Origin: a virus | IMG/VR virus record: IMGVR_UViG_3300045988_104662 | Reading direction: 5' to 3' (one strand) | DNA: 40,027 nucleotides | Shown: one piece after another, positions 9,341 to 38,957 of the stretch | How the letters are laid out: every line of letters starts with the position of its first letter | How positions within the stretch are numbered: the first letter of the stretch is position 1 | Notes under the pieces: generated by a model | Databases searched by the model: none | What the model saw: only the letters and a program-made list of their open reading frames with translations | What the model was told of the DNA's origin: nothing | Program-made: the position numbers and the translations under genes

Positions 9341-9789
9341 GAGACAGTGACGCAGACATCGCCATCGACGTGCTCAACAAACTCATCGACCAGGAACTCA
9401 AGGCCGCGAGCGCCGGAATGCGTGACGGGAACAGAATCCTCGAGGAATGCGCGTCGACACGATACCACGCCTACACCTTCGCCAGAGATGAGATCAGGAA
9501 GGCGCTCGCCGATGCCGTGGAGGAGCGGGATGCTCGGAACCCGTTCCAGTGTCAGCGTGATGAGTTGGTCACGCAGGATATGCATACGTGCGATTTGTGC
9601 GGCCGGTGGTGCCCGAGTCCCGTGTACCGCGTGTGCCTGTGCTACGCGGACCAGTCCAGGGTGGCGTCCGATGTGTGCGCCGACTGCATGTGGAGGCTTG
9701 GATTCAGGCCGGTCGGGACGGTGCCGCTCGAGGCGTATCGGCGGTATGAGCGGTGGGTGTCGGAGCATCCGACGGGAAGGAGGGGTTGA
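9337..9789 (+). CDS. Cys-rich hypothetical protein
   Basis: 150 aa with an AAGGAAGG RBS. Cys cluster CDLCGRWCPSPVYRVCLCYADQSRVASDVCADC. Confidence 0.55.
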   Translation: MRDSDADIAIDVLNKLIDQELKAASAGMRDGNRILEECASTRYHAYTFARDEIRKALADAVEERDARNPFQCQRDELVTQDMHTCDLCGRWCPSPVYRVCLCYADQSRVASDVCADCMWRLGFRPVGTVPLEAYRRYERWVSEHPTGRRG

Positions 9790-23710: not shown

Positions 23711-24036
23711 TCGAGGACCTACGGATCTGCCGCCAGCTCGGCATCAGCTACAAGCGGTTCATGGGCTGGCGGCCGAGCAGGGGCGATGAGGTCGAATGGG
23801 ATGAGACGGAGCGTAATTGGATGCGCTCGTTGGCGGAATACGAACGCTCGTTGTGCCCACTATGCGGTTTGCCGCGCTCGATCTGCCAAGACCCGAAGGC
23901 CGAACTTACATTGCATGCCGAAACCAGCGTCTGCTGGGCCACCGCGCACATGCAGCAGGCCATGAAACGGTGGACTGATGCGAATGGCAGGGACAATCCG
24001 GCCGCGAACGCGTTGACCGCGCACCTGACCTGTTGA
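23201..24036 (+). CDS. Tail assembly chaperone, -1 frameshift-extended (GT-like) form
   Basis: The -1 frame is open from 23578 to 24036. After a slip at 23665-71 the product continues PKSGIRPRLEGSPQLVEDLRICRQLGISYKRF... Confidence 0.6.
23665..23671 (+). promoter_or_regulatory. -1 programmed frameshift slippery heptamer C CCA AAA
   Basis: In the G frame the sequence reads gaC CCA AAA gcg, an X XXY YYZ heptamer about 40 nt before the G stop, inside the overlap with the -1 ORF. Confidence 0.6.
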
Positions 24037-27000
24037 CATTTTTGGAGGATGCTTTGGCTGAGAACAAGAACATCGTCATCCGGCTGATGGCCGACACCGC
24101 CTCATATGAGGCGGCGATGACCCGCGCCGGAAGCACCGCGAAAACGGTCGCTTCGGACATGGAGAACACCGGCCGCAAGAGCGCGCTCATCACCAGCGGC
24201 CTCACCGCCGCCGGACTCGCCGCCGCCGCTTTCGGCGTCGCATCCATCAAGATGGCAGCCGACTTCGACCAGCAGATGAGCACTGTGCAGGCCAACACCG
24301 GAGCCACCGGAGCTGAACTCGACCAACTCCGCCAAGCCGCCATCGAAGCAGGCGCAAGCACCGTCTACTCCGCCAGCGAATCAGCCGACGCGATCAACGA
24401 CCTCGGCAAGGCCGGCATGAGCGTCACCGACATACTCTCCGGCGGCCTGACAGGGGCCCTCAACCTCGCCGCCTCGGACGGCATGGCCGTGGGCGACGCC
24501 GCGGAATACATGGCTAACGCATTGTCGATGTTCCACTTGTCCGGCAGCCAGGCTTCGCAGGTCGCCGACACGCTCGCCGCTGGCGCTGGCAAGGCAGTCG
24601 GCAACGTCAGCGACTTCGGAGAAGCGCTCAACAACTGCGGCGCGCAGGCCAACAGCTTCGGCATGAGCATCCAGGAGACCACCGGCGTCCTCAGCCTCTT
24701 CGCCCAGAACGGCACCATCGGCGCCGAAGCCGGCACACAATTGAACAGCATGCTCATGAAGCTCGCCGCGCCATCCAACGACGCGGCAGCCACCATGAAG
24801 GAGCTCGGCATCAGCGCATACGACGCTTCCGGCAACTTCGTCGGCATGGCCAATTTCGCCGGACAGCTGCAAAAAGCCGAGAAAAACCTCACGCAGGAAC
24901 AGCGCAACCAGGCGAATGCGACAATTTTCGGCAGCTACGCCATCAAGGCCGCCAACTACCTCTACGACGCCGGAGAGAAAGGCGTCAGGAACTGGACCAA
25001 GGCGGTATCCGAAAGCGGATACGCAGCCGAACAGGCAGCGGCAAAGAACAACAACCTCAAAGGCGACCTCGAAAACCTCTCCGGCAGCATGGAATCGCTC
25101 ATGATCTCCATCGGCGAAGGCGCGCAAGGGCCACTGCGCAAACTCGTCCAGGGGCTTGACACCCTCGTGGACTCCTTCGCCAGCCTTCCGGCCGGCGCGC
25201 AGCAGACCATCATCGTCATGGCCGCTCTCGGCGGCGTGCTCGGCGGCGTCCACAAGGCCGCAAGCAATCTCAACGGCAGCACCAGCACGATGGCCAACAA
25301 CATTGGTCTGGCCATCGACCCGATCCAGCGTATGAAAAGCGCTCTGGCCTCCGCGCAGACCGCCTTCCAGATGTTCCGTGCGAGCGGCATGAGCGCGCAG
25401 GAGCAGATGGAGGCGTTCGGCACGAGCGCCAGCAGAGCCGAACTGAAAACCGCCGGATTCAAAGCCGTCGGCAGCAGCGTCATGAGTCTGCTCGGCGGAC
25501 CGTGGGGCATCGCCCTCACCGTCGCCGGAGTGGCGCTCACCTCATTTATTGAGCGCCAGCAGAAGGCCAAGGAGGCCACCGAACAGCTCCAGTCCGCGCT
25601 TGAATCAGGCAGTGACGTCCGTAGCACCATCGCCGACTCCTACCAGAAGATGAACTTCGCCGGAGCCGACATGACGCATTGGATGGGCGAGGCAAAGGTC
25701 AGCCTGACCGACATGACCAGCGCAGCCATGGGCAACAAGGACGCGACTGACAAGGTCAACGCCGCGTTGAAGGAATACGGCAAGCAGGGCCATTCGCAGA
25801 TGGCTGTCGCGCAGAAGATGCGCGACAGCATCAAGGACGAAGCCAAGGCATACAGCGAAGCCAAGGAACAGACCAAGCAGAAGGCCGCAGCCACCAAGAA
25901 CGCCGTGGACGCCGACGGCAACGCATCGAAGGCCGCCAAGGACACCGCCAGCGCGAACAAGGACCTCGGAAGCAGCGCCAAGGACGCGGCCGAGGAAATC
26001 GACGGACTTGTCAAATCGCTCTTCGGCTTGGAATCCAACAACCTGACCGCCGACGAGGCCGTGGACCAGCTCAACCAGAAGATCGGCCAACTGTCGGACA
26101 CCTGCAAAGACAATGGTCGAGTGTTCAACGAGAACGGCGACCTGCTCGACCGATTCAGCGAGAAGGGCACAAAGACCAGGCAGGCCTTGGAGGATATCGC
26201 CAGCAGCGCGCAGAACGCTGCGGAGAAGATACTCAAGCAGGGTGAGAACACCAACTTCACCGGAGGCGAGATCGAACGCGCCAACGGCGTCCTGCAGGAT
26301 GCGCGCGAAGCCCTCATAAGGCAGGCCGAAGCTTCGGGCATGGGCGAACAGGCCGCTAACGCTTTGGCGGACCGGTGGGGTCTGAGTTCCGACAGCATCA
26401 AAGCGGCGATCGACAACATCAAGAAGACCGCCGAAGGCAACCAGCCGAAGCTCGACGTGGACGACTCCAAGGCCAAGAAGAAAACCAAGGATTCCGAGAC
26501 CAACCTCGACAAATTCAACAAGAAGGTTGCGAAAGCCAAGCTCGAAGCCGACGACAAGAAGGCCACGGACAGCGCCAAGAAGGCGCGGAAGATGATGGAC
26601 GACTTCGGCAAGAAGCACGTCAAAGGCACCATCGACGCGACCGACAAGGCATCCAAGAAGGCCAAGACCGCATCCGCGAACGTCAACAAGCTCAACGGCA
26701 AGAAGGCCACGGCCAAACTCGACGCGAAAGACAACGCGTCTCCGAAGGTCGACAAGGCCAACTCGAAGAAGCTGACCAACAAGCGCAACACCTTGGACTC
26801 CACGGACAAGGCCACGCCGAAGACGAACGCGGCCAACTCCAAGAGGCTCAAAGACAAGCGCAACACGCTCGATTCGGCCGACAAGGCCGGACCGAAGGTC
26901 GACGCCGTCAACCGCAAGAAGCTGAACGACAAGAAGAGCACCGCCTCGGTCAACGACCAGGCGACTCCGGTGCTCCGGTTCATCAACAACTTCAAGATCG

Positions 27001-27461
27001 CGGACAAGAGCTTCACCGTCACGGAGAAAACGAAGAAGGAAGGCGGTTACACAGGCGGCATGTTCACGGACGGCACCTTCCAGCAGTTCGCCGGAGGTGG
27101 CGAGTTCGTCGGCTACGTGGATCCGGCATGGGCGCCCGGCAATGGTCTGAGCGACAGCGTGTACCTGCTCAACGCTCGTCTCGCCGCGGGCGAGTACACG
27201 CACAATGCCGCGGCCACGGCCTATTACGGCGTCGATACCATGCGCCTGCTGAACGAGCGGAAGATTCCACGCGAAGTGTTTGCCACAGCCAATCAGATGA
27301 CAGGCAATCAGGTCAGCATACAGGTTGATACCGCTTCCGTGGTGGCGGCGATAACCAGCCTGCACAACGATCTTGGCGCGATCATCAGCGCCGCGTCCGA
27401 TGATTCGACGGTCGGCGATCGTGACTTGGGGAGGTTGATCCGCAGATATGCGCGAGCTTAG
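24033..27461 (+). CDS. Tape measure protein (start TTG 24033 or TTG 24054)
   Basis: About 1140 aa. Ala/Gly-rich helical N-terminus and Lys-rich repeats. GGAGGA at 24044-49 favours TTG 24054 as the start. Confidence 0.85.
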   Translation: MTFLEDALAENKNIVIRLMADTASYEAAMTRAGSTAKTVASDMENTGRKSALITSGLTAAGLAAAAFGVASIKMAADFDQQMSTVQANTGATGAELDQLRQAAIEAGASTVYSASESADAINDLGKAGMSVTDILSGGLTGALNLAASDGMAVGDAAEYMANALSMFHLSGSQASQVADTLAAGAGKAVGNVSDFGEALNNCGAQANSFGMSIQETTGVLSLFAQNGTIGAEAGTQLNSMLMKLAAPSNDAAATMKELGISAYDASGNFVGMANFAGQLQKAEKNLTQEQRNQANATIFGSYAIKAANYLYDAGEKGVRNWTKAVSESGYAAEQAAAKNNNLKGDLENLSGSMESLMISIGEGAQGPLRKLVQGLDTLVDSFASLPAGAQQTIIVMAALGGVLGGVHKAASNLNGSTSTMANNIGLAIDPIQRMKSALASAQTAFQMFRASGMSAQEQMEAFGTSASRAELKTAGFKAVGSSVMSLLGGPWGIALTVAGVALTSFIERQQKAKEATEQLQSALESGSDVRSTIADSYQKMNFAGADMTHWMGEAKVSLTDMTSAAMGNKDATDKVNAALKEYGKQGHSQMAVAQKMRDSIKDEAKAYSEAKEQTKQKAAATKNAVDADGNASKAAKDTASANKDLGSSAKDAAEEIDGLVKSLFGLESNNLTADEAVDQLNQKIGQLSDTCKDNGRVFNENGDLLDRFSEKGTKTRQALEDIASSAQNAAEKILKQGENTNFTGGEIERANGVLQDAREALIRQAEASGMGEQAANALADRWGLSSDSIKAAIDNIKKTAEGNQPKLDVDDSKAKKKTKDSETNLDKFNKKVAKAKLEADDKKATDSAKKARKMMDDFGKKHVKGTIDATDKASKKAKTASANVNKLNGKKATAKLDAKDNASPKVDKANSKKLTNKRNTLDSTDKATPKTNAANSKRLKDKRNTLDSADKAGPKVDAVNRKKLNDKKSTASVNDQATPVLRFINNFKIADKSFTVTEKTKKEGGYTGGMFTDGTFQQFAGGGEFVGYVDPAWAPGNGLSDSVYLLNARLAAGEYTHNAAATAYYGVDTMRLLNERKIPREVFATANQMTGNQVSIQVDTASVVAAITSLHNDLGAIISAASDDSTVGDRDLGRLIRRYARA
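26630..26950 (+). repeat. In-frame ~63-bp (21-aa) tandem repeats inside the tape measure gene (approximate bounds)
   Basis: Peptide units DAKDNASPKVDKANSKKLTNKRNTL / DSTDKATPKTNAANSKRLKDKRNTL / DSADKAGPKVDAVNRKKLNDKKST, with more degenerate copies upstream. Confidence 0.6.
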
Positions 27462-28302: not shown

Positions 28303-29834
28303 CGCCACGTGCGATCGTTTCGCAGGTGACGTTGGATTGGGCTTGCGGCACGGACGAAAACGACTTCGAATTGACCATCGACGATCCGGATGCGCCGGAA
28401 ATCGAACGTGGTTGGTATTTCTGGCTTGACGGCAGTGACGTGGGCGGCCGGATCATCGACCGTCGTGTGACCGTTTCCGGTGGCGTGTCCACGGCCATGT
28501 GGATCGGCCAATCGTGGACTGGCATGTTGGCGGCGAAGATATTGCAGCCGGACGCGAATCAGGATTACCTGACCGTCTCCGGCAAGCTGCCTGACATCCT
28601 TAAAAGCCTTTTGAAGCGCATCGGTTTGGATTCGGTGTTTACCGTCGATTCCTCCGATGCTTCCACTTTGTCGAATTGGATGTTCCGAAATCCACGCTAC
28701 GTGGACGCCTACACAGGATTCCGTAATCTGCTCGCATCCTGTGGCAGACGCCTCGATTTCCAAGCCAAGGATAATCGCATCCTGCTTGGCATCACGCCGG
28801 TCGGCATCATCGACAACACGATCGATTCCGACTTGGTGGACTTCAAGGCCGAAACCAACTGTCGCGCGGTGAATCATCTCATCGGCCTTGGCTCGCAGGA
28901 GCTTAAAGATCGTCTGGTGGTCAATTATTTCGCTGATGCAGCCGGTGCGGTGAGTCAGACGCAGACGCTCATTGGCGTCGATGAGGTATGCGCCACATAC
29001 GACTATTCCAACGCGGATTTGTCCACGCTGCAATCCGAGACGAAGAAACATCTGCAGGAGTTGCAGACCGGTGGTTCGGTCGAGGTGACGTTGTCCGATG
29101 AGGTCGGTGATGGTCTGCACGTGGATGACAAGATCGTCGCGACGGATCAGGCTTCCGGTGTCAATGTCACCGCCGTGGTGACGAAGCAGATTGTGAAAAT
29201 CGATTCCGGGATTTTGACTTCGACGTTCGAGGTCGGACTGCCGGTGCAGTCGGCGAATGCGAACTATTCCGGCTCTTCCTCTTCGTCTTCCGGTGGTTCG
29301 CCTGGTGGTGGCGTGTCTTTGACGGCTGGTCGTGGCCTGTCGATTTCAGGCGGCACGATAAACGCGGATGTCGATTCTGATGATTTGAATGCCGTCAGGC
29401 AGGTTGCCGAGGCGGCTAACAAGACGGCTTCCGATTACGCGGCGCAGATTGGAGCGGCGAACAAGACCGCCGAGGATGCGAAGACCGTTGCGGATGCGGC
29501 GAAGAGTGTGGCCGATGGTGCGAAGTCGGGCATGATGACCGACGGTGAACGGTCTAAGCTCGCTTCGGTCGAACGGGGCGCGAACGCTTACGCGCTGCCG
29601 AAGGCGTCCACGGACGTGTTGGGTGGCGTGAGGGTGGATGGTTCCACGATTGTGAGCGTGGACGGTGTGATAAGCGCCCATGTGAACGGTGGCTCCGGCA
29701 GTACGGGAAAGGTCGTGTTTCCAATCGGCTATGTCGTGATGAACACGACCGGTGTTGACCCTGCGGTGGATTTCGGTGGTACGTGGAGGCAGTTGCCTTC
29801 GCTTGGTTGTTCCATGTTTGAAAGGATTGGATAG
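28269..29834 (+). CDS. Tail-associated / baseplate hub protein with fibre-like C-terminus (Tal-like)
   Basis: 521 aa. TTG start with a GGGAGG RBS. Ser/Gly linker, then a coiled segment AAQIGAANKTAEDAKTVADAAKSVADGAKS. Confidence 0.6.
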   Translation: MADVILADGKLTPRAIVSQVTLDWACGTDENDFELTIDDPDAPEIERGWYFWLDGSDVGGRIIDRRVTVSGGVSTAMWIGQSWTGMLAAKILQPDANQDYLTVSGKLPDILKSLLKRIGLDSVFTVDSSDASTLSNWMFRNPRYVDAYTGFRNLLASCGRRLDFQAKDNRILLGITPVGIIDNTIDSDLVDFKAETNCRAVNHLIGLGSQELKDRLVVNYFADAAGAVSQTQTLIGVDEVCATYDYSNADLSTLQSETKKHLQELQTGGSVEVTLSDEVGDGLHVDDKIVATDQASGVNVTAVVTKQIVKIDSGILTSTFEVGLPVQSANANYSGSSSSSSGGSPGGGVSLTAGRGLSISGGTINADVDSDDLNAVRQVAEAANKTASDYAAQIGAANKTAEDAKTVADAAKSVADGAKSGMMTDGERSKLASVERGANAYALPKASTDVLGGVRVDGSTIVSVDGVISAHVNGGSGSTGKVVFPIGYVVMNTTGVDPAVDFGGTWRQLPSLGCSMFERIG

Positions 29835-30085
29835 TGAAGTCTGACGGTTACTCGAAGTACGTGTGCGACAAGTGCGGCAAGACCGCGTATGTCGCAGCTG
29901 GCGATACGGAGGCGCGTGAATGGTTCACCGTGCGCCGGTATTCCGCTGGCAAGGCGACCCGCATCGCGGATGATGTGACGCCTGACATCTACGAATTGTG
30001 CTCCCAGTGCAATGCGTCTTTCATGGCGTTCATGCAGAAGGACGACGCTTCTTTTGAAGCATGGTTGAAGGAGGCTGAACAGTGA
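29834..30085 (+). CDS. Small Zn-ribbon protein
   Basis: 83 aa with CDKC ... CSQC pairs. Confidence 0.45.
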   Translation: MKSDGYSKYVCDKCGKTAYVAAGDTEAREWFTVRRYSAGKATRIADDVTPDIYELCSQCNASFMAFMQKDDASFEAWLKEAEQ

Positions 30086-30867
30086 CCATCGAACTTGTTG
30101 ACGGCAAAGCCGGAGTCGCGCACATCTCGAGCGAGGACAAGGCGATCATCCATCAGGCCAAGTTTTCGAAGTCCGACGTGGTGTTCGACTGGGGCGACGC
30201 GTTCAAGTGTTCGATGAGTTCGCCCAACAGGGCGACGATCGGCACCGGCTGCGCGTCGATTCAAGGCTTGGACTGGCATATCACGGCGGCGGAATCCGTG
30301 ACGATCTCCAACGGGTCGCAGGGCGTGAAACGCAATGACATCATCTGCGCGCATTACCATCGAGATTCCAAGACCGGTAATGAGCTGGTGGAATTGACCG
30401 TGTTGAAGGGCACGCCGAACGCGACGACTGCCGCCGACCCGACCATTCCGTCAGGGAAGATACTGTCCGGCGCGGTTGACGCGTACATGCCGTTGTGGCG
30501 TATCCCATTGGACGGTATCACGGTCGGCACTCCGGTGCGCCTGTTCACGCCGAAGGGGGCTTTGTGGGATTCCGTAACCCAACCGTGGAAACCGCCGTAT
30601 ACGAACAACAGCCTCACGCTGTGTCGGGTCGGACGCACAGTCACGGTCAACGGCAACGTCAAGTTCACCGGCAGCGGAGTGCAGAACTACGCGATGGCGG
30701 TTGAGACCATCCCTGAAGCGTTCCGCCCACTCGCCGATCAGAGCATCATCGCGTTCCCGTCCTGCGGTTTCAGCCTGCTTGTCATGCGTGACGGGAAGGT
30801 GCAGATGCTTGGCGACCCGAAATCCGCCTACTCCACGGCGCACGGCTGCTGGATAACAGCACAGTAG
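30082..30867 (+). CDS. Receptor-binding / tail fibre protein: constant part (aa 1 to ~161) plus the currently expressed variable cassette V0
   Basis: 261 aa. Crossover site R0 lies in frame at codons W162-D-S-V-T. The C-terminal 95 aa resemble silent cassette A (IPEAFRPL...DGKVQMLGD vs LPEAYRPP...NGIIRVANM). Confidence 0.75.
   Translation: MTIELVDGKAGVAHISSEDKAIIHQAKFSKSDVVFDWGDAFKCSMSSPNRATIGTGCASIQGLDWHITAAESVTISNGSQGVKRNDIICAHYHRDSKTGNELVELTVLKGTPNATTAADPTIPSGKILSGAVDAYMPLWRIPLDGITVGTPVRLFTPKGALWDSVTQPWKPPYTNNSLTLCRVGRTVTVNGNVKFTGSGVQNYAMAVETIPEAFRPLADQSIIAFPSCGFSLLVMRDGKVQMLGDPKSAYSTAHGCWITAQ
30565..30580 (+). repeat. Shufflon site R0 (expression site): tgg gat tcc gta acc c
   Basis: Lies in frame in the RBP gene and reads W D S V T. 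It shares the 11-nt core ttccgtaaccc with R1-R3. Confidence 0.75.
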
Positions 30868-30880
30868 CTTTCCGTAACCC
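30865..30880 (+). repeat. Shufflon site R1: tag ctt tcc gta acc c
   Basis: The 16-mer is identical to R2 and to R3 on the opposite strand. Its TAG is the stop codon of the RBP gene. Confidence 0.8.
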
Positions 30881-31164
30881 TCTATAATGCCGATGGTTTC
30901 GTTGTCATCAAAGCCGGAATATTGATGCTCGTGAAGTTTAGCGGCGCGATAGGGGTCGGAAGCTGGGATGCGAAACAGTGCAAGTATGTTCTGCCGGAAG
31001 CGTATAGGCCGCCAATCGAGGTCAACAGCATGTGCTGCGTCGCGAATGGCCAGACCGCGCGAACGCTTATCGTACAGGCCAACGGTATCATCCGGGTAGC
31101 CAACATGGGATCGACTGGTAGCAGCCAAGGTTGCGTCGGAACTGTCGTATACCCAATCTGCTAG
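30881..31164 (+). other. Silent C-terminal cassette A
   Basis: Open from R1 to the TAG of R2, in the same frame as the RBP gene. No convincing RBS or start of its own. Confidence 0.7.
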
Positions 31165-31177
31165 CTTTCCGTAACCC
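31162..31177 (+). repeat. Shufflon site R2: tag ctt tcc gta acc c
   Basis: Identical 16-mer. Its TAG terminates cassette A. Confidence 0.8.
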
Positions 31178-31500
31178 TCACCAAGACGAACACTAACTGG
31201 AATGTGGATTACCGTACCGCGCTGGTCGGCAAGATGCTGATAGTCGCATTCCACGCCACACGCCTCAACTCCGACTGGAATGCTGCGAAGGAGTGGGAGA
31301 TATCCCAGCTTTTCACGCTACCAACCGGCTTGGAGGCGGCTTTCGAGGTGCATTGCGCCGCCGTGTCCAATTCCAGCGTCGGGCTGCATGGCGTCGAAGT
31401 GCAGACCGCGGGCAACGCCATCGCCCTCCGCTCGTCGGAGAAGATGACGATCGGCAAGGGCGGATGGGTCGAGGGATGCATCACGGTGCCGCTCGCCTAG
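31178..31500 (+). other. Silent C-terminal cassette B
   Basis: Open from R2 to the TAG at 31498-31500, in the same frame. No RBS. Confidence 0.7.
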
Positions 31501-31843
31501 GCGAATGTCACGCCATCTGGCACGGGGATAATCTTCGAGAAGCATTGGATGACATCGTTTGGCCCTACACCGCCGATGAGGACCACCGACCCGTCCGTGT
31601 TCCAAGTCGCCTGTTTTCCGTACGCGATGCCGGCCACATTCGCGACGCACCCCAAACTGACCGCTTTGGAGGGTTTCACACCCGATTTGAACGTCCAGAC
31701 GGTGAAGTTGCCGGTGTTCACGGCGCTTCGGAACGATGACAGGTCAACGAAGATCAGACCATCCCTGACCTTGATGGTGTTCGAAGCGCTGTAAGGCGCC
31801 GGAACGAACGAGCCGGTGGACTGCCATTGTAATTGGCACGTCT
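31497..31843 (-). other. Silent C-terminal cassette C (inverted)
   Basis: On the minus strand it is open from R3 (LSVT QTCQLQWQSTGSF...) to a TAG. It converges with cassette B at the palindrome cctagg. Confidence 0.7.
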
Positions 31844-31859
31844 GGGTTACGGAAAGCTA
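31844..31859 (-). repeat. Shufflon site R3 (inverted), abutting the recombinase stop codon
   Basis: gggttacggaaagcta is the reverse complement of tagctttccgtaaccc. It lies 1 nt from the TGA of the recombinase gene. Confidence 0.8.
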
Positions 31860-31860
31860 T

Positions 31861-32733
31861 TCAGCAGGTCAACACCAGTCGTTGCCATGCTCGCTGCATG
31901 TCCTTGAGGACGCTCAGATCAGGCTTCAAATAATACCTTGCGGTGGTCTGGATGTCGGAATGGCCGAGCTGTCGTGCGACCACGCTGATGTCGGTGCCCG
32001 CCTTGATTGCCAGCGTGCCGAACGTGTGACGCAGATTGCGTGGCGGGACAGAGGGTAGTTTCATTCGCTGGCACCATGACTTGTAACGGTTAGCGACTTG
32101 GTTCGCGTTCAGATTGCCGACCAGTCTGCCGGTCTTCGTGCCGTGCCGTAGTTCCGCCAACCGTTTGACGGCAAATCGCGGCAACGCCACGGTTCGACGG
32201 CTCAAATCGGTCTTCGGCTCGGTGACCGTCTCATGTCCTGCGACCCACTGCACGGAACGTTTGACTGTTACCGTGCCACGCCGCAGGTCAAGGTCAGACC
32301 ATTCGATGCCGACCGACTCGCAACGGCGCAAACCGGCGCATACCGACACCAACAGCCATGCTTCGAGCGGATGCCCGTAGAAGCCTTTCAACAGCTTGCG
32401 CACCTCCTGCGCCGACAACACTCGCGGCTCATAGTGACGTAGGCGGGGGAGTCTGATTTCCCTTCTGGTCACATCATTGTCCGTCATGCCGCGCCGGAAC
32501 GCGAGCCTGAGAATCGCACGGAACACGGCCCATGCTTTTCGCGCCGCTCCCGGCTTGTCGAAGGAGTCCAACCATGATTCGATGTCCGCCACCGTGATCG
32601 AGTCCAGGTCTTTTCCGCTCCATTGTGGGAGGATATGACGGTTCAGGGCGCTTTCATATCCCACTAGAGTGCATTCGCGGAGTTTCGCGCATGAGGGTTT
32701 CCAAACAGTGGATGCGAATGTGCCGAAAAGCAT
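31861..32733 (-). CDS. Shufflon-type tyrosine recombinase (Rci/Rin-like)
   Basis: ATG at 32733 with GGGAAGGA 5 nt upstream. 290 aa. Motifs AGLRRCE, NLRHTFGT, LGHSDIQTTARYY. It sits inside the tail-fibre region and is distinct from int. Confidence 0.85.
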   Translation of the reverse strand: MLFGTFASTVWKPSCAKLRECTLVGYESALNRHILPQWSGKDLDSITVADIESWLDSFDKPGAARKAWAVFRAILRLAFRRGMTDNDVTRREIRLPRLRHYEPRVLSAQEVRKLLKGFYGHPLEAWLLVSVCAGLRRCESVGIEWSDLDLRRGTVTVKRSVQWVAGHETVTEPKTDLSRRTVALPRFAVKRLAELRHGTKTGRLVGNLNANQVANRYKSWCQRMKLPSVPPRNLRHTFGTLAIKAGTDISVVARQLGHSDIQTTARYYLKPDLSVLKDMQRAWQRLVLTC

Positions 32734-32847
32734 TGGTTCCTTCCCGATTATTGTTGAATAATCCCACACATTGTCGTGTTGCCGTTGGCCTGACATGCGT
32801 GTGGGTTTCTTATTGTTTCACATCCATGATTCTCCGTTCATGTTTTT

Positions 32848-32877
32848 AAACCCGTCGATTTCGACGGGTTTTGTTTT
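32848..32877. terminator. Hairpin plus T-run between the recombinase and the next tail gene
   Basis: aaacccgtcga-tt-tcgacgggttt is followed by tgttttt on the + strand. Confidence 0.55.
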
Positions 32878-32902
32878 TAACGCTTCTTTTAAGGAGGATG
32901 TT

Positions 32903-33301
32903 TTGACTCAGATCAAATTCGATTTCGGCCATCCGAGTGCGGATGGCATCGCCGACTTGGCCGGTGAGACGGTTCACGTGATTCCGACGAGCCGTTTCAA
33001 CAGCGGTAAGCGCATCGTGGTGCGTGACTCGTTCGAGGTGAGACTGGACGAGTATGGCACCGCGACCGTCACCGTTCCGCCGACCGATAACACGTTCGCC
33101 TACGAGGTGACCATCGGCGATAGCGCCGATTCATGGCGGTTCATTCGCGTCGTGCAGGTGCCGGATTCGACTTCGGTGTTGAATTTCTCCGATCTGGTTG
33201 AAGTTGATTCTACCACGCTCACGCCGGTGGGTACCGGCAATCCGTTGGCTGACATCGACCAGTCCGACATCGACTGGGCGTTGGCCGCCATCCGCAACTG
33301 A
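32903..33301 (+). CDS. Minor tail / fibre-associated hypothetical protein
   Basis: TTG start with AAGGAGGA 4-5 nt upstream. 132 aa. Lies directly upstream of the DGR target gene. Confidence 0.55.
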   Translation: MTQIKFDFGHPSADGIADLAGETVHVIPTSRFNSGKRIVVRDSFEVRLDEYGTATVTVPPTDNTFAYEVTIGDSADSWRFIRVVQVPDSTSVLNFSDLVEVDSTTLTPVGTGNPLADIDQSDIDWALAAIRN

Positions 33302-33314
33302 GAAAGGACAGAAA

Positions 33315-34898
33315 ATGGCAAATCCGGACAAGTTCATCCGCCTGCGCGATTTCGCGAAGATCATGCGCGCCCTGCGCGAGACCGACGTGGACGGCACGAC
33401 CTTCCATTACGACGAATCGAAGCACGAATACGCGAATGTCAAGGAGTTCTACAGTCAGCACCGCTCCGGCCGAATCTACGGCGTGCAGTTCCCTCGCTAC
33501 TCCTTCTCCCATGTGCCCACAGGCGCGAAGACCCACGACAACGCAAACCTGTCCGTGACGGTATCCACCGCCGCGAACGCCGGACGCGACGACTACGCCT
33601 ACCTCAACGCCTTCCAATGGCGCGATGTGAACGCCACCGTGGACGACTCCGGCGTGCCGCACATCACCGCCATCGAAGGGGACAGCCGATTCCGCCGCGA
33701 CGGATCCAACGGAGACGTGTTCGTCATGGTCGCGCCCGGATATTTCCGCATCGACGGAGACGACAACCACATCGAACTGCTTTACAGCGACGAGCAGTAC
33801 GACGGCTTCGAACCGATGCCGGGACTGCTCCTGCCGGACGGCACCGAACGCCCATGCCTGCTGTTCGCGAAATACGCGGCATCCCTGTCCGGCGGCATAC
33901 CGCGCTCCTGGAGCAGCCAGAAGATCGACCCCGGCTTCGGCTGCCAGAACGACCAGATCGACCTCGCCCTGAAAAAGGGCAAGGGGTACGCCGGCCAATG
34001 CCAGCCGGACGTCTTCTACTTCCAGCTGATGCTCATGCTGAAATTCGCCACCAAGGACATGGAGGCGGCGCTCGGCGGCTGCTTCGAAAACTACATGGCT
34101 CAGGGGCCGGTCACCAAGGCCGAATCCAACGCCAAACGCGTCATCATCGCCAAGGACACCGCCGACAACATCCTCGTCGGATCCACCATCAACATCGGCA
34201 CCGACAAGGAACGCAACAACAGCGGCAACCACTCCATGGCCGAGGCCCGCACCGTCCTGTCCAAGACCACCATCGACGCGACGAACGTGGCCCTCAACAT
34301 CGACGGCGCCGCCATCACCACCACGACCACCGCGTTCGTCAGCACCATGCCGTGGAAGACCGGCGCCACCGACTCCATCCGCGGCAGGGGAGACGGACGC
34401 CCGCAGGCCGACCACGCCGGATGGCAGCCGGTGCGTCTGCAGGGCATCGAACGCGGCAACGGCATCTACGAGGTCGACGCGGACGCCATCGTCAACGCCT
34501 ACAAGGACGCCGACGGCATCGGCCACACCGCCCTCTACCTCGTGCACGACATCACCAAGGCATCCAAGACCAGCACCGACAACTACACTCTCGTAGGCGA
34601 GTTTCCGACCCGCGACAAGACCAACGACTCGAGCTCGCGCTTCGCCGAGGACTTCAACGTCGTCGACGGGCGCGTGTTCCTGCCGACCGGCATCGGCGCC
34701 ACCTCCAGCACCGGCCTCACCGACGCCGTCTATGCCAATCCGGTCCAGGCACAGGGGCTCCGACAGGTGCTCCGGTTCGGCGTTCTCGGTGTTGGCTCGT
34801 TCTGCGGCGCGTTCCGCGCGTACCTGGGCAGGGACCTGTCGAGCCGCGGGTGGGACATCGGCGGCCGCCTATCCGCGCTCGGCCGCTCGAAGGCATGA
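33315..34898 (+). CDS. DGR target protein (distal tail / receptor-binding candidate) with C-terminal variable region
   Basis: ATG at 33315 with a GAAAGGA RBS. 527 aa. VR occupies the last ~40 codons: ...VLRFGVLGVGSFCGAFRAYLGRDLSSRGWDIGGRL, a C-type-lectin-like DGR VR pattern. Confidence 0.85.
   Translation: MANPDKFIRLRDFAKIMRALRETDVDGTTFHYDESKHEYANVKEFYSQHRSGRIYGVQFPRYSFSHVPTGAKTHDNANLSVTVSTAANAGRDDYAYLNAFQWRDVNATVDDSGVPHITAIEGDSRFRRDGSNGDVFVMVAPGYFRIDGDDNHIELLYSDEQYDGFEPMPGLLLPDGTERPCLLFAKYAASLSGGIPRSWSSQKIDPGFGCQNDQIDLALKKGKGYAGQCQPDVFYFQLMLMLKFATKDMEAALGGCFENYMAQGPVTKAESNAKRVIIAKDTADNILVGSTINIGTDKERNNSGNHSMAEARTVLSKTTIDATNVALNIDGAAITTTTTAFVSTMPWKTGATDSIRGRGDGRPQADHAGWQPVRLQGIERGNGIYEVDADAIVNAYKDADGIGHTALYLVHDITKASKTSTDNYTLVGEFPTRDKTNDSSSRFAEDFNVVDGRVFLPTGIGATSSTGLTDAVYANPVQAQGLRQVLRFGVLGVGSFCGAFRAYLGRDLSSRGWDIGGRLSALGRSKA
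34767..34868 (+). repeat. DGR variable repeat (VR)
   Basis: Aligns without gaps over 102 bp to 35005..35106. There are 15 mismatches, all opposite a TR adenine, and 0 mismatches at C, G or T. Confidence 0.9.
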
Positions 34899-34926
34899 GC
34901 CAAGAGCGGTGAGGGGTGAGCGCAGC

Positions 34927-34946
34927 GAGGGGGCGCAAGCCCCCTC
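34927..34946 (+). promoter_or_regulatory. GC hairpin downstream of VR (candidate DGR target-recognition stem-loop)
   Basis: gagggggc-gcaa-gccccctc: an 8-bp stem and 4-nt loop, about 60 nt after the end of VR/TR homology. No T-run follows it. Confidence 0.55.
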
Positions 34947-35004
34947 ATCGTCCCGCTGAAAAACATGTGGGACTCGGAGTGGCGCGCCTACCGTCCTTCG
35001 CGTC

Positions 35005-35106
35005 GTGCACCGGTTCGGCAATCTCAGTGATGGCTCGAACTGCGGCGCGTTCCACGCGAACCTGAACAGGGACCTGACGAACCGCAGGTGGAACATCGGC
35101 GGCCGC
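35005..35106 (+). repeat. DGR template repeat (TR)
   Basis: Contains 21 adenines, 15 of them substituted in VR. Four AAC codons and one AAT codon in the VR frame (VHRFGNLSDGSNCGAFHANLNRDLTNRRWNIGGR). Homology ends in the GC-only run cggcggccgc. Confidence 0.9.
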
Positions 35107-35280
35107 ATACCTGGACAATCCTGTCGAAAACATCAGAACACTCCGATTACCGTCGGCCACGATCTAAGCCAGACGGCATGCCACGGCCAGATCCGAAAAT
35201 GCAACACGAGCACGCGGCCGGTAGATGAACCCATCCAGCCACATCGACAGCCGCGCAAAGTCCAGATAGGAACAGCTCAA

Positions 35281-36384
35281 TTGAAAACCTACTGCCGTCA
35301 CACGCATTGCGGCACACCGGCCTTCGTCAGGAAGGCCATAGACCATTACCTGCAAGGCAAAACATCAAGACGCGACGTCACGAGATTCCTGGAACACCAC
35401 CCGGACCTCGACGACCTCGCCATCAGACTCGCCGGCCAGATCAGGACCGGCGGATTCGACCATCCACGTATCCGATACTTCAACCGTGTCGAACCGATTT
35501 CCGGCAAGCATCGCGTCATCGGCCGTGAGGCCGTCGAACAGCAGATCCTCGACCACGTCGCGGTCATCGCCCTCATGCCCTTGTTCGACGCGAAGATAGG
35601 ACGATGGCAGACCGCGAGCATCCCGGACCGCGGCACCAACGACGCACGACGTGTCATCCGCAAATGGATCCGCGAACCATCGAGCAAAGTCTTCGTCAAA
35701 CTCGATGTGCGCAAATGCTATCCATCGATTGATCGGCCGACGCTCAAGGCGATGCTCTCGCACGACGTCGGCGACATGACGCTCCTGCGCCTCGTCTTCC
35801 ACCTCATCGACTCCTACGCCGGCGATAACGGCCTGAACATCGGCAGCTACCTCAGCCAATACCTGGCGAATTATTACCTGTCGTCCATCTGGCACTTCTG
35901 CGAGCACGGACTCACCAAAACCAGACGGCACAGGGACGGCACCACCACGAAGCGAAGGCTCGTCACCCACGTCCTCTTCTACATGGACGACATCCTGCTG
36001 CTCGGACGCTCGAAACGCGACCTGTCGATCGCGGCAAGACGCATCACCACCTTCGCGCACGACCGGCTCAAACTCGACATGCACCCCGAATGGAACGTCA
36101 AGCACGTCGGCATCGAACCAATCGACATGGTCGGCTACACGTTCCGGCCCGGCCGGACGAACATCAGACCCGGCATATTCCTGCGAGCCGGACGGACCTT
36201 CGCCAGATTCCGCCGACACCCAAGGAACCTGACACTGGCGCGCAGATGCGCCAGCTACTACGGATACTTCATCCACTCCGACTCGACGCTCGTGCGCCGC
36301 CGCCGGCAGGTGGACAAGACAATGCGCATGGCCAAGCGGACGCTGGCCCGCGCCAACCAACAACCAAGGAAGGAAAAAAGATGA
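35281..36384 (+). CDS. DGR reverse transcriptase (start uncertain; TTG 35281 proposed)
   Basis: Motifs LDVRKCYPSID, NIGSYLSQYLANYYL (the DGR-typical [ILV]GxxxSQ), FYMDDILLLG, IDMVGYTF. There is no in-frame ATG or GTG before the RT motifs. TTG 35281 has AGGAA about 8 nt upstream. Confidence 0.85.
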   Translation: MKTYCRHTHCGTPAFVRKAIDHYLQGKTSRRDVTRFLEHHPDLDDLAIRLAGQIRTGGFDHPRIRYFNRVEPISGKHRVIGREAVEQQILDHVAVIALMPLFDAKIGRWQTASIPDRGTNDARRVIRKWIREPSSKVFVKLDVRKCYPSIDRPTLKAMLSHDVGDMTLLRLVFHLIDSYAGDNGLNIGSYLSQYLANYYLSSIWHFCEHGLTKTRRHRDGTTTKRRLVTHVLFYMDDILLLGRSKRDLSIAARRITTFAHDRLKLDMHPEWNVKHVGIEPIDMVGYTFRPGRTNIRPGIFLRAGRTFARFRRHPRNLTLARRCASYYGYFIHSDSTLVRRRRQVDKTMRMAKRTLARANQQPRKEKR

Positions 36385-36749
36385 GCAAACTCGTCACCAG
36401 CGCCACACCGCTGGAAAAGGTCGAATACTTCAGGCGGGGCGACGGCCTCGCCGACATCTGGCTCCGCGAGGACATCAAGCAGGTCCAGCATCTCGGCACC
36501 GATGGCACCGAGACCACCGAATACACGGCGCAGGAAACCTACCTGTGCCGCGACCTGACCGAACAGGAGGCGGTCGAGCAATTCGACAGCCTCATCCAAT
36601 CGGCCGAGATCGAATCGATGGACGACAAGGAGCGCATCGCACAGCTCGAGCAGCAGGCCGTCGACAACGCCACCGCCATCGCGGCCCTCTACGAGGCGCA
36701 ACTCACCACAGCGTCCGCCAACGATGCCGGAGCAAAGGAGCAAGCATGA
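36381..36749 (+). CDS. Acidic hypothetical protein
   Basis: 122 aa. ATGA overlap with the RT stop. Strongly acidic, so unlike Avd. Confidence 0.5.
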   Translation: MSKLVTSATPLEKVEYFRRGDGLADIWLREDIKQVQHLGTDGTETTEYTAQETYLCRDLTEQEAVEQFDSLIQSAEIESMDDKERIAQLEQQAVDNATAIAALYEAQLTTASANDAGAKEQA

Positions 36750-37400: not shown

Positions 37401-38639
37401 ATGCGCAAGCACAAGCCTCCGTGGCTCAAACGAATCCGGCTGGCGGTGACCGGCGTGGTCATGGCCATCACCATGGCCGTAGCGCCCGCCGCGATGGCCG
37501 ACCTGAACGGATACGACGTATCCGGCTACCAGGCCCCGGACATCACGCAGGTCGCTCCGGCCGACTTCGCGATCGTCAAGGTCAACCAGGGCTGGTACAT
37601 CAACTCCAGCTGGGGCCAGCAAGCATCCGGCGCCGTCAACACCGGCAAGGAGCTAGGCCTGTACGATTACGCGTCCGGAATGGACGCCACGACCGAAGCC
37701 GACAACTTCGTCAACCACATCACCGGATACGTCGGCAAGGCCATGCTCGTCCTCGACTGGGAGCCATATCAGAACGCCGCGTGGGGCAACAGCAACTGGG
37801 TGCGGACGTGGGTATACCGCGTCCACGCCAGGACGGGAGTGTGGCCCGTCGTCTACTGCTCCAAGGGCTTCGTCGACCAGATACCGGCGGACGTCCGAGC
37901 CAAGTGCATGCTGTGGGCGGCGCAGTACGCCAACAACTACGCGACCGGCTACCAGGACTCCCCATGGCTCGCCGGATCGCAGGGCGAAGGCATGCTCCAG
38001 TACACGAGCACTGGCTACCTCAACGGACATGGACCGCTCGACCTCGACAAATTCTTCGGAGACAGGACGGCATGGCGCAAGATCGCCTGCGGCGAACGCG
38101 CCGGCTGCTCCACCACCGGAGGATCCACCGGCACGCCGAACGTCCACGTGGAGAAGCGGACGACCAACACCACCGACCTGAACGCCATGGCCACCGCCGT
38201 CATCCGCGGCGATTACGGCAACGGCGCCGATCGGCAGTCCCGTCTCGGCGACAACTACCAGGCGGTGATGAACATCGTCAACAGCCGCCTGTCCGGTTCG
38301 ACGTACTCCGGCCCGACCACCGTGACCCGCACGACGACCCGCACCTACGTGGTCCGCTCCGGCGACACCGTGTCGGCCATCGCCGAGCGCACCGGCCTCA
38401 AGCCGGCCTCCGCATGGCGCGTGCCGTCCGGCAACATCAACCGGATCTACGTCGGCCAGACGATCACCTACTACGGCTCGTCCACCGTCTCCACGCCGTC
38501 CACGACCTACTCGTCCACGCACGTGGTCAGCGCAGGCGAGAGCCTGTGGAAGATCTACGGATCCGGCTGGTACGCCGCGGCCCAGCGCAACGGCCTCCGT
38601 CCGCCGTACACCATCTATCCAGGCCAGCGGCTCCGCTGA
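37401..38639 (+). CDS. Endolysin: signal peptide, GH25 muramidase, CW_7-like repeat, two LysM-like repeats
   Basis: N-terminus MRKHKPPWLKRIRLAVTGVVMAITMAVAPAAMA/DL. GH25-like segment GYDVSGYQ...FAIVKVNQG...LGLYDYA. LNAMATAVIRGDYGNGADRQSRLG. YVVRSGDTVSAIAERTG and HVVSAGESLWKIYG. Confidence 0.8.
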   Translation: MRKHKPPWLKRIRLAVTGVVMAITMAVAPAAMADLNGYDVSGYQAPDITQVAPADFAIVKVNQGWYINSSWGQQASGAVNTGKELGLYDYASGMDATTEADNFVNHITGYVGKAMLVLDWEPYQNAAWGNSNWVRTWVYRVHARTGVWPVVYCSKGFVDQIPADVRAKCMLWAAQYANNYATGYQDSPWLAGSQGEGMLQYTSTGYLNGHGPLDLDKFFGDRTAWRKIACGERAGCSTTGGSTGTPNVHVEKRTTNTTDLNAMATAVIRGDYGNGADRQSRLGDNYQAVMNIVNSRLSGSTYSGPTTVTRTTTRTYVVRSGDTVSAIAERTGLKPASAWRVPSGNINRIYVGQTITYYGSSTVSTPSTTYSSTHVVSAGESLWKIYGSGWYAAAQRNGLRPPYTIYPGQRLR

Positions 38640-38705: not shown

Positions 38706-38957
38706 ATGGACAAGGACACCAAGACTGAGCTCGACTATCTGCTGCCCGACAAGGCATACGAGATCCTCAAGTGGGTCGCGCTGATCGCCCTGCCGGCCGT
38801 CGCATGGCTGGTCGGCGCGGTCGGCCCGCAGTGGGGACTGCCTCACTGCGGCGAGATCGTCACGACCATCAACGCCGTCGGCGTTTTCGTCGGCGCTCTG
38901 ATCGGCGTGAGCCAGCTCACGGCCACCAAGCCGGACGATGATTCCGACAAAGATTAA
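38706..38957 (+). CDS. Holin
   Basis: 83 aa with an AAAGGAGGTG RBS. Two TM helices and a charged C-terminus (KPDDDSDKD). Adjacent to the lysin. Confidence 0.7.
   Translation: MDKDTKTELDYLLPDKAYEILKWVALIALPAVAWLVGAVGPQWGLPHCGEIVTTINAVGVFVGALIGVSQLTATKPDDDSDKD

Follow-up and report, generated by a model that had tools for sequence, protein, structure and literature searches.

The viral DNA described here, IMG/VR record IMGVR_UViG_3300045988_104662 (40,027 nucleotides in all, hereafter the window; 40 kb, ~61% G+C), reads as a nearly complete temperate Bifidobacterium siphophage, and its distal-tail module carries two sequence-diversification systems side by side. The first, at 30082-32796, is a DNA-inversion shufflon made up of the constant N-terminus of a receptor-binding protein (RBP), four recombination sites (rix), four C-terminal cassettes, and the gene for a tyrosine invertase (rin, encoding Rin). 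The second, at 33315-36749, is a complete diversity-generating retroelement (DGR), with a target gene that ends in a variable repeat (VR), a template repeat (TR), a GC hairpin, and a reverse transcriptase (RT). We consider it very likely that these are two independent, functional diversification systems acting on neighboring distal-tail genes of one temperate Bifidobacterium siphophage. The shufflon comprises the following features, in window coordinates:

30082-30569, plus strand: Rc, the constant N-terminal part of the RBP, ~163 aa; phrog_13141 and phrog_9994 cover residues 1-167
30570-30580, plus strand: rix site 1, within the expressed RBP gene (a 261-aa open reading frame, ORF, at 30082-30867)
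30581-30867, plus strand: variable (Rv) cassette A, fused to Rc in the expressed configuration; stop codon at 30865-30867
30870-30880, plus strand: rix site 2
30881-31164, plus strand: Rv cassette B, read in frame from rix 2 and silent in this configuration
31167-31177, plus strand: rix site 3
31178-31500, plus strand: Rv cassette C, read in frame from rix 3 and silent in this configuration
31497-31843, minus strand: Rv cassette D, silent and inverted, in frame from rix 4
31844-31854, minus strand: rix site 4, the sole inverted site in the present configuration
31861-32796, minus strand: rin, armless tyrosine DNA invertase, directly beside rix 4; Pfam Phage_integrase at 7e-17, plus SAM-like core-binding domains

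The rix site is the 11-mer TTCCGTAACCC, of which the window has copies at 30570(+), 30870(+), 31167(+), and 31844(-), four in all against an expectation of 0.31, and none of 100 shuffles reached four copies; a longer identical motif, TAGCTTTCCGTAACCC, is common to sites 2-4. Each site leads in frame into S-V-T and then into an open cassette of 97-118 aa, and cassettes A-D are mutually 19-25% identical, with a weak common scaffold in their alignment. Cassettes C(+) and D(-) are convergent, the palindrome CTAG at 31497-31500 serving as overlapping stop codons, and in all loci examined the two travel as one unit with a rix at each outer end. The rin product is 290-311 aa long and has no arm-binding domain, and its NCBIfam Xer-like matches all fall below cut-off; the gene probably starts at Met22 (32733), which is plausible because homologues align only from residue 14-22 onward. 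It has 84% nucleotide identity with a gene annotated ‘integrase’ at the equivalent place in phage PMBT6. We nevertheless rejected a role as the prophage integrase, given the missing arm-binding domain, the location inside the tail module, and a separate integrase seen in a relative, and likewise rejected a serine-invertase (Min/Gin) switch, since the recombinase belongs to the tyrosine family. A sequence search of PDB with the RBP gave no meaningful match. Mechanistically, Rin would recombine inverted pairs of the 11-bp rix sites, with each inversion joining Rc (163 aa) to one of four unrelated heads of 97-118 aa. In a configuration model that allows recombination only between inverted rix sites, 12 configurations are reached from the present one and all four cassettes can be expressed, D after one inversion (rix 1 x rix 4) and B or C after two.

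The DGR and the gene that follows its RT occupy the next stretch:

33315-34898, plus strand: DGR target protein, 527 aa, the second distal-tail protein; phrog_17147 at 3e-84, phrog_5302 (tail protein) at 1e-20
34767-34871, plus strand: VR, 105 nt, codons 485-519 of the target
34927-34946, plus strand: hairpin GAGGGGGC-GCAA-GCCCCCTC, 28 nt past the target stop codon
35005-35109, plus strand: TR, 105 nt, with 23 adenines and five AAC codons
35110-35280, plus strand: TR-to-RT spacer, presumably part of the DGR RNA, going by its position and by analogy with the BPP-1 TR-to-brt interval
35281-36384, plus strand: DGR RT, RVT_1; phrog_1423 at 6e-72; putative TTG start
36387-36749, plus strand: orf120, acidic, 120 aa; phrog_37768 and no other match

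The VR and TR are 85% identical, and 16/16 mismatches lie at TR adenines and none at the other 82 positions, a distribution for which we calculate by our own arithmetic a chance of <1e-10. Sixteen TR codons contain adenine, and randomization at their adenines would give ~8e12 protein variants with no stop codon possible. The common VR/TR repeat ends in CGGCGGCCGC, a candidate for the GC-rich IMH, past which VR and TR no longer match. DGR types whose targets are only 44-60% identical retain, 27-30 nt past the stop codon, an 8-bp GC stem capped by GCAA or GAAA. The best PDB match of the RT is the Bordetella phage DGR RT (bRT; 8ub7, 1.3e-21), in an alignment that takes in IGSYLSQ and YMDD; over three divergent cassette types the SQ motif does not change, and the catalytic box is FY(M/A)DD, one type having FYADD. 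The RT ORF is open from 35005 because its frame reads through the TR, and the most likely start of the RT core is a TTG at 35281, which is preceded by AGGAA. The RT would copy TR RNA with adenine-specific errors, and the resulting cDNA would replace the VR at the 3' end of the second tail protein, randomizing up to 16 target codons. The shufflon and the DGR have no component in common; the former would set a few discrete heads on one protein and the latter near-continuous variation on another.

Evidence that both systems vary comes from related loci (designated here by L numbers), which were drawn on the Rin side from an IMG/VR scan (the best 80 of 190 relatives, plus four loci from species-representative genomes) and on the RT side from a scan of the best 80 of 261 relatives; both samples are ranked by similarity to the window and IMG/VR is redundant, so that counts from them are not population frequencies. 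Four loci (L005, L006, L007, and L010) have a rin 94-100% identical to that of the window and are 98-99.7% identical to it over ~5.7-8 kb (lysis genes, DGR, and rin), yet their cassette arrays differ, and every homology breakpoint in them falls on a rix site, with breakpoints of L005, L007, and L010 at rix 1. The L007 array reads Rc-B-A-D/C(inverted), with B fused to Rc, an order that the model places three legal inversions away from the window. In L006, cassettes B, A, and C are all inverted relative to Rc; cassette A is inverted or relocated in L006, L007, and L010; and the arrays of L005 and L010 carry partly different cassettes. A pattern search for rix in which the variable base could be either G or C located sites where cassettes meet in related loci, and Rc is 90-100% conserved among Rin loci regardless of the cassette fused to it. 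At least 15 of the 84 Rin contigs end <100 nt past the rin stop codon, at rix 4, which fits the expectation that within-sample inversion heterogeneity breaks short-read assemblies. The contigs ending there include L001, L002, L003, L004, L012, L014, L015, L020, L025, L028, L042, L043, L048, L070, and L074.

The DGR varies among relatives too. L001, L006, and L007 have a TR identical to that of the window, and their VRs all differ from it: L001 has 13 VR differences at TR-adenine positions and none elsewhere, with six in the remaining ~2.9 kb; L006 has 15 and none, with three in the remaining ~2.9 kb; and L007 has 11 and one, with eight in the remaining ~2.9 kb. Over all fetched loci, 1408 of 1481 TR/VR mismatches (95%) lie at adenines. 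Both systems look active in the recent history of this lineage, because contigs with 99-100% identity in rin and RT, and over ~8 kb, differ almost only in VR and cassette order.

One way to account for such differences without either mechanism would be metagenomic misassembly or ordinary recombination among co-occurring phages, and all comparison sequences are indeed metagenome contigs. A case in point is L006 (IMGVR_UViG_3300045988_062358), in which 99.7% identity to the window runs from the lysis genes through the DGR and rin to all four cassettes and stops exactly at positions 9526-9536, which equal window rix 1; beyond this point Rc is 41% and Tal (the minor tail protein gene product upstream) 37% identical. 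Two readings fit: mosaicism with its joint at a rix site, or a chimeric contig in which a right arm of 99.7% identity was fused to a left arm unrelated to that of the window. As a general explanation, though, artefact or ordinary recombination is extremely unlikely, since breakpoints at rix recur in several independent contigs from different samples, VR changes confined to TR-adenine positions are predicted by neither misassembly nor homologous recombination, and Rin inversion has been seen in reads of cultured lysogens and induced virions (PMC6109161).

Several points weigh against two working systems that vary the adhesins of this phage. For the shufflon, the first His of the Rin HxxR box seems to be Arg (RNLRH, read from the translation), and rix 1, 2, and 3 all point the same way in the present configuration, so the first inversion must involve rix 4. 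For the DGR, searches of Pfam, NCBIfam, and PDB found no Avd-like gene among the small ORFs of 32.9-37.3 kb, taking in orf132 (the gene upstream of the target), orf120, a 47-aa ORF, and a 105-aa ORF. Sequence and profile searches of PDB and Pfam with the target gave no match, hhalign of the target against BPP-1 Mtd returned 0.6% probability, and AlphaFold2 models of the target were poor, with predicted local distance difference test scores (pLDDT) of 37 for the full length (30 sequences) and 39 for the C-terminal 198 aa (36 sequences); a protein search with the C-terminal 147 aa returned 16 fragments only and added no alignment depth. The variation evidence for both shufflon and DGR is, moreover, between contigs and not between reads from one population or culture.

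Avd is essential in BPP-1 and is frequent in DGRs, though not universal, and therefore the missing Avd match does not exclude membership of the DGR class. It does bear on the possibility that one system is a relic in this copy, either a DGR disabled for want of Avd or a Rin that is too weak, with the diversity of relatives being ancestral. The TTG start assigned to the RT would fit such decay, and so would the worn templates of some relatives: L005 (the same as L093 and L101; IMGVR_UViG_3300045988_156981) has a TR from which 8 of the 23 adenines are gone, and the L014 TR has just 6 left. These templates appear to have been mutagenized or overwritten, changes that would progressively disable a DGR. 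We nonetheless regard a relic as very unlikely here, because the window TR keeps all 23 adenines and is the same as in L001, L006, and L007 with their differing VRs, the RT motifs are intact, near-identical contigs differ in little besides VR and cassette order, and the Avd-less cassette with orf120 is diversified in ~100 loci.

The orf120 gene itself stands directly 3' of the RT in 70/70 judgeable DGR loci (L103-L172), with or without Rin, and was not detected in the sampled Rin loci without a DGR. Its product has no Pfam, NCBIfam, or PDB match, and BLASTP against bAvd found no similarity. It may represent a novel DGR accessory factor that acts independently of Avd, or a target-specific chaperone or partner.

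An earlier note on this DNA, made from its letters alone, had placed a shufflon and a DGR next to each other in one tail module, and the anatomy and family matches confirm that both are present, adjacent, and complete, on two different distal-tail genes. Also as that note had it, nothing but a terminator-like hairpin (32848-32871) and a 132-aa ORF separates the two, and the four discrete RBP heads correspond to four cassettes in frame from rix sites. Its hypervariable target tip holds up, with the count of 12 variable codons giving way to 13 of the 16 adenine-bearing TR codons that differ in the window's VR, whereas the lectin fold it gave to that tip was not confirmed by the target searches and models described above. 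Inactivity of either system, which it had named as grounds for doubt, was not borne out: RT and recombinase motifs are intact, and relatives vary as expected.

The TR-encoded peptide is FGNLSDGSNCGAFHANLNRDLTNRRWNIGGR, which may resemble the VRs of lectin-fold proteins, and the VR domain may have a lectin fold. In some database sources homologues of the target bear the name ‘tail collar fiber protein’, and its 90% identity clusters hold up to 5616 distinct sequences. A B. breve isolate or prophage without Rin has the target after a BppU_N baseplate protein. This neighbor, the match to phrog_5302 ‘tail protein’, and the contents of the same slot in relatives place the DGR target in a peripheral baseplate or fiber position. 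The position and annotation of the gene suggest that the target sets host range, and presumably both the Rc-Rv RBP and the DGR target bind host receptors.

The target could instead be a decorating or non-structural protein that binds, for instance, mucus glycans, in which case host range would not be multiplied. Such a role would suit a target without a recognizable receptor-binding or lectin domain in a phage that already has a separate RBP (Rc-Rv), and the slot after rin varies widely in relatives and can hold a collagen-like protein, as is typical of accessory fibers. We think this improbable, given that the target matches the tail protein family phrog_5302 and that some sources name its homologues as tail collar fiber proteins, that in the B. 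breve prophage it sits behind BppU_N in the position of an RBP, that the equivalent slot in PMBT6 holds an annotated tail fiber protein, and that the target gene lies between baseplate and lysis genes.

How often the two systems meet can be read from both samples. On the Rin side, 44 of the 72 loci with enough flank have target, TR, RT, and orf120 homologues arranged and placed as in the window, and these cassettes fall into three types by target identity (>=88%, 46-48%, and 44%). On the RT side, Rin is adjacent in 25 loci and not in 44, with 11 not judgeable (25/69 judgeable). Rin and DGR modules thus assort independently and are often together; each is also found alone. Where Rin loci have no DGR, the slot after rin holds several small ORFs, or else an orf132-like N-terminus that is fused to a collagen-like protein or has one after it. 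In L036 the slot is filled by a collagen-like (GEKGEKGEKGD...) protein of 328 aa. In L012, L059, and L065, the slot from the orf132 homologue to the lysis genes contains consecutive, overlapping ORFs of 119-200 aa with near-identical ends such as LPLVFAA.DHPY, which may be a further set of alternative C-terminal modules. L023 and L045 lie on one 83.7-kb contig (IMGVR_UViG_2877182016_000001) that has two Rin and DGR loci separated by ~40 kb, a spacing that points to a pair of related prophages, or to a tandem arrangement, within a single genome.

A stronger form of the association would be that cassettes, rin, orf132, DGR, and orf120 form a co-transferred host-range island in which both systems tune two subunits of one baseplate complex. 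L006 hints at this, sharing the whole block at 99.7% through the lysis genes next to unrelated Rc and Tal, with the joint exactly on a rix. So does the presence of the DGR in 44/72 Rin loci, in a sample biased toward relatives of the window, far above the ~9% reported for B. longum prophages (tail-targeting DGRs in 26 of 286; 2026 preprint, bioRxiv 10.64898/2026.02.18.706556). A third hint is the unbroken linkage of the acidic orf120, a possible accessory factor or target-specific chaperone, to the DGR. We regard the island as a tentative and rather unlikely reading.

Each system is a member of a described family, with an ordinary mechanism, and has already been described in bifidophages; the combination is modestly new. 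The Rin shufflon is known from Bifidobacterium prophages Bb423phi1, Bl157phi1, and Bl30698phi1 (Mavrich et al. 2018, PMC6109161), for which an 11-bp rix (TTCCCTAACCC), a 168-aa Rc, variable C-termini of 95-100 residues, and an armless tyrosine invertase were reported, together with Rin inversions in reads from lysogens in culture and from virions after induction; these Rin-bearing prophages were inducible, and no permissive host was found. The window agrees in having the invertase next to the cassettes, an asymmetric 11-bp rix in the RBP gene and before each cassette, similar Rc length (about 165 aa) and head size (95-120 aa), a location after the tape measure, Dit, and Tal genes, and inversions between related genomes. 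It differs in its rix, since TTCCGTAACCC is one base away from TTCCCTAACCC, and in having four cassettes, two of them a convergent overlapping pair. RT or DGR is mentioned 0 times in that text (PMC6109161).

The DGR resembles that of BPP-1 (mtd-avd-TR-brt) in the order of target with 3' VR, TR, and RT, in adenine-only differences, in an AAC-rich TR, and in a GC stem with a 4-nt loop downstream of the VR (CGGGGCC-GAAA-GGCCCCG in BPP-1). Unlike BPP-1, where the hairpin directly follows the mtd stop codon, the window has it ~28 nt past the stop; its target and TR follow one another with no avd gene in between, no Avd-like protein was detected, and the conserved acidic orf120 comes after its RT; its target has no detectable Mtd similarity, and its host is Gram-positive.

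Inversion that swaps the C-terminal part of an adhesin or tail-fiber gene among silent cassettes is also the principle of Min/Gin/Cin (p15B, Mu, and P1) and of R64 Rci. The former use serine recombinases, unlike the tyrosine enzyme of the window. The R64 Rci shufflon shares a tyrosine recombinase and convergent paired cassettes with the window, but acts at sfx sites in the pilV pilus adhesin of a conjugative plasmid, whereas the window's shufflon lies in a phage tail module and uses another site sequence; neither Min/Gin/Cin nor R64 is known to be paired with a DGR. Eggerthella lenta prophages have both system types in a gut actinobacterium, as here, with a Rin shufflon in clade 1 and DGRs in clades 2, 3, 4, 7, and 10, and DGR activity shown experimentally (PMC8778435), but the two were not reported in one phage there. 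The isolated Bifidobacterium phage PMBT6 (MK932884) has the same order of tape measure gene, tail genes, small cassettes, rin, fiber slot, and lysin; unlike in the window, its slot after rin is occupied by a protein of 219 aa and by another of 214 aa annotated as a tail fiber protein, and the phage has no RT.

Closest to the pairing is a 2021 survey that marks, in each of the B. longum and B. breve prophages BlongAF05-2ph1, BreDRBB29ph1, and BreBR3ph5, both an RT beside a tail gene and an inversion associated with the tail (PMC8705816, Fig. 4f), and these prophages probably share the architecture of the window. The survey calls the RT a likely DGR ‘not yet described in Bifidobacterium’; unlike the present account, it does not link the inversion to Rin or a shufflon (neither word appears) and does not define TR and VR (PMC8705816). 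In the library searched, no paper with both ‘shufflon’ and ‘diversity-generating retroelement’ describes the two in one phage. As for deposited phages, megablast of the locus against INPHARED GenBank phages matched only the PMBT6 rin and one cassette fragment, tblastn of the target there found only unannotated metagenomic phages at 25-30% identity and no close homologue, and no deposited phage record in INPHARED carries the Rin and DGR pair. As far as we searched, the pairing, which is frequent in phages of gut bifidobacteria, has been pictured in a 2021 figure (PMC8705816) and not explicitly recognized. The statement in the earlier note that its author knew of no described phage using both systems is borne out as regards explicit description, while the rarity it implied is weaker than supposed, because the arrangement is common in public data and marked in PMC8705816; scans for co-occurrence, of the kind it called for, found the pairing common here, and the arrangement is not characterized.

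Bifidobacteria dominate the infant gut, and lytic hosts for their phages are hard to find. Four RBP heads combined with a second tail protein randomized over ~1e12 variants would mean a very plastic host range, of relevance to phage-host prediction from sequence, to strain dynamics in infants, and to bifidophage engineering. The locus would also let one ask, in a natural setting, how two adhesins on one baseplate share out discrete and continuous diversification. The mechanisms are not new, and we posit that the pairing merits a short description and an experiment rather than a claim of a new kind of system.

The remainder of the window agrees with a temperate siphophage. Head and replication genes were identified for a replication initiator, nuclease, portal, protease, and major head protein, and the distal-tail module runs in the order tape measure, Dit-like, Tal-like, RBP, and DGR target, with the endolysin and holin genes after it. 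Scans of the window for Rfam families and tRNAs were negative. Host assignment to Bifidobacterium accords with L001, a metagenome-assembled genome of an uncultured Bifidobacterium in which rin, orf132, RT, and orf120 have 99-100% and the target 98% protein identity, and with target homologues in B. breve, B. reuteri, and B. imperatoris genomes. The neighbors of the two systems, and the elements between them, are:

24033-27461: tape measure protein ORF, 1142 aa
27448-28302: Dit-like (Dit-position) ORF, 284 aa
28269-29834, plus strand: Tal-like minor tail protein, after the tape measure and Dit-position ORFs; phrog_538 (minor tail protein) at 2.6e-42
29834-30085, plus strand: 83-aa Cys-rich small protein between Tal and RBP; phrog_28750
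32848-32871, plus strand: putative terminator-like 10-bp stem-loop, then TGTTTTT
32903-33301, plus strand: orf132 (132 aa), probable tail adaptor; phrog_6614 (minor tail protein) over the N-terminal 109 aa at 1e-6
37401-38639: endolysin, downstream of the DGR
38706-38957: holin, downstream of the DGR

The N-terminal ~108 aa of orf132 are kept in Rin loci both with and without a DGR, and its product is probably a tail adaptor that precedes whichever fiber module fills the slot after rin. The stem-loop lies within the 106 nt that separate the rin start from orf132 and overlaps the region where the rin promoter must be; on the plus strand it would, judged from its sequence, halt late transcripts reading antisense through rin. 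The 83-aa ORF at 29834-30085 has two Cys pairs in a zinc-ribbon-like arrangement with weak Pfam matches, and its start and stop codons overlap both neighbors.

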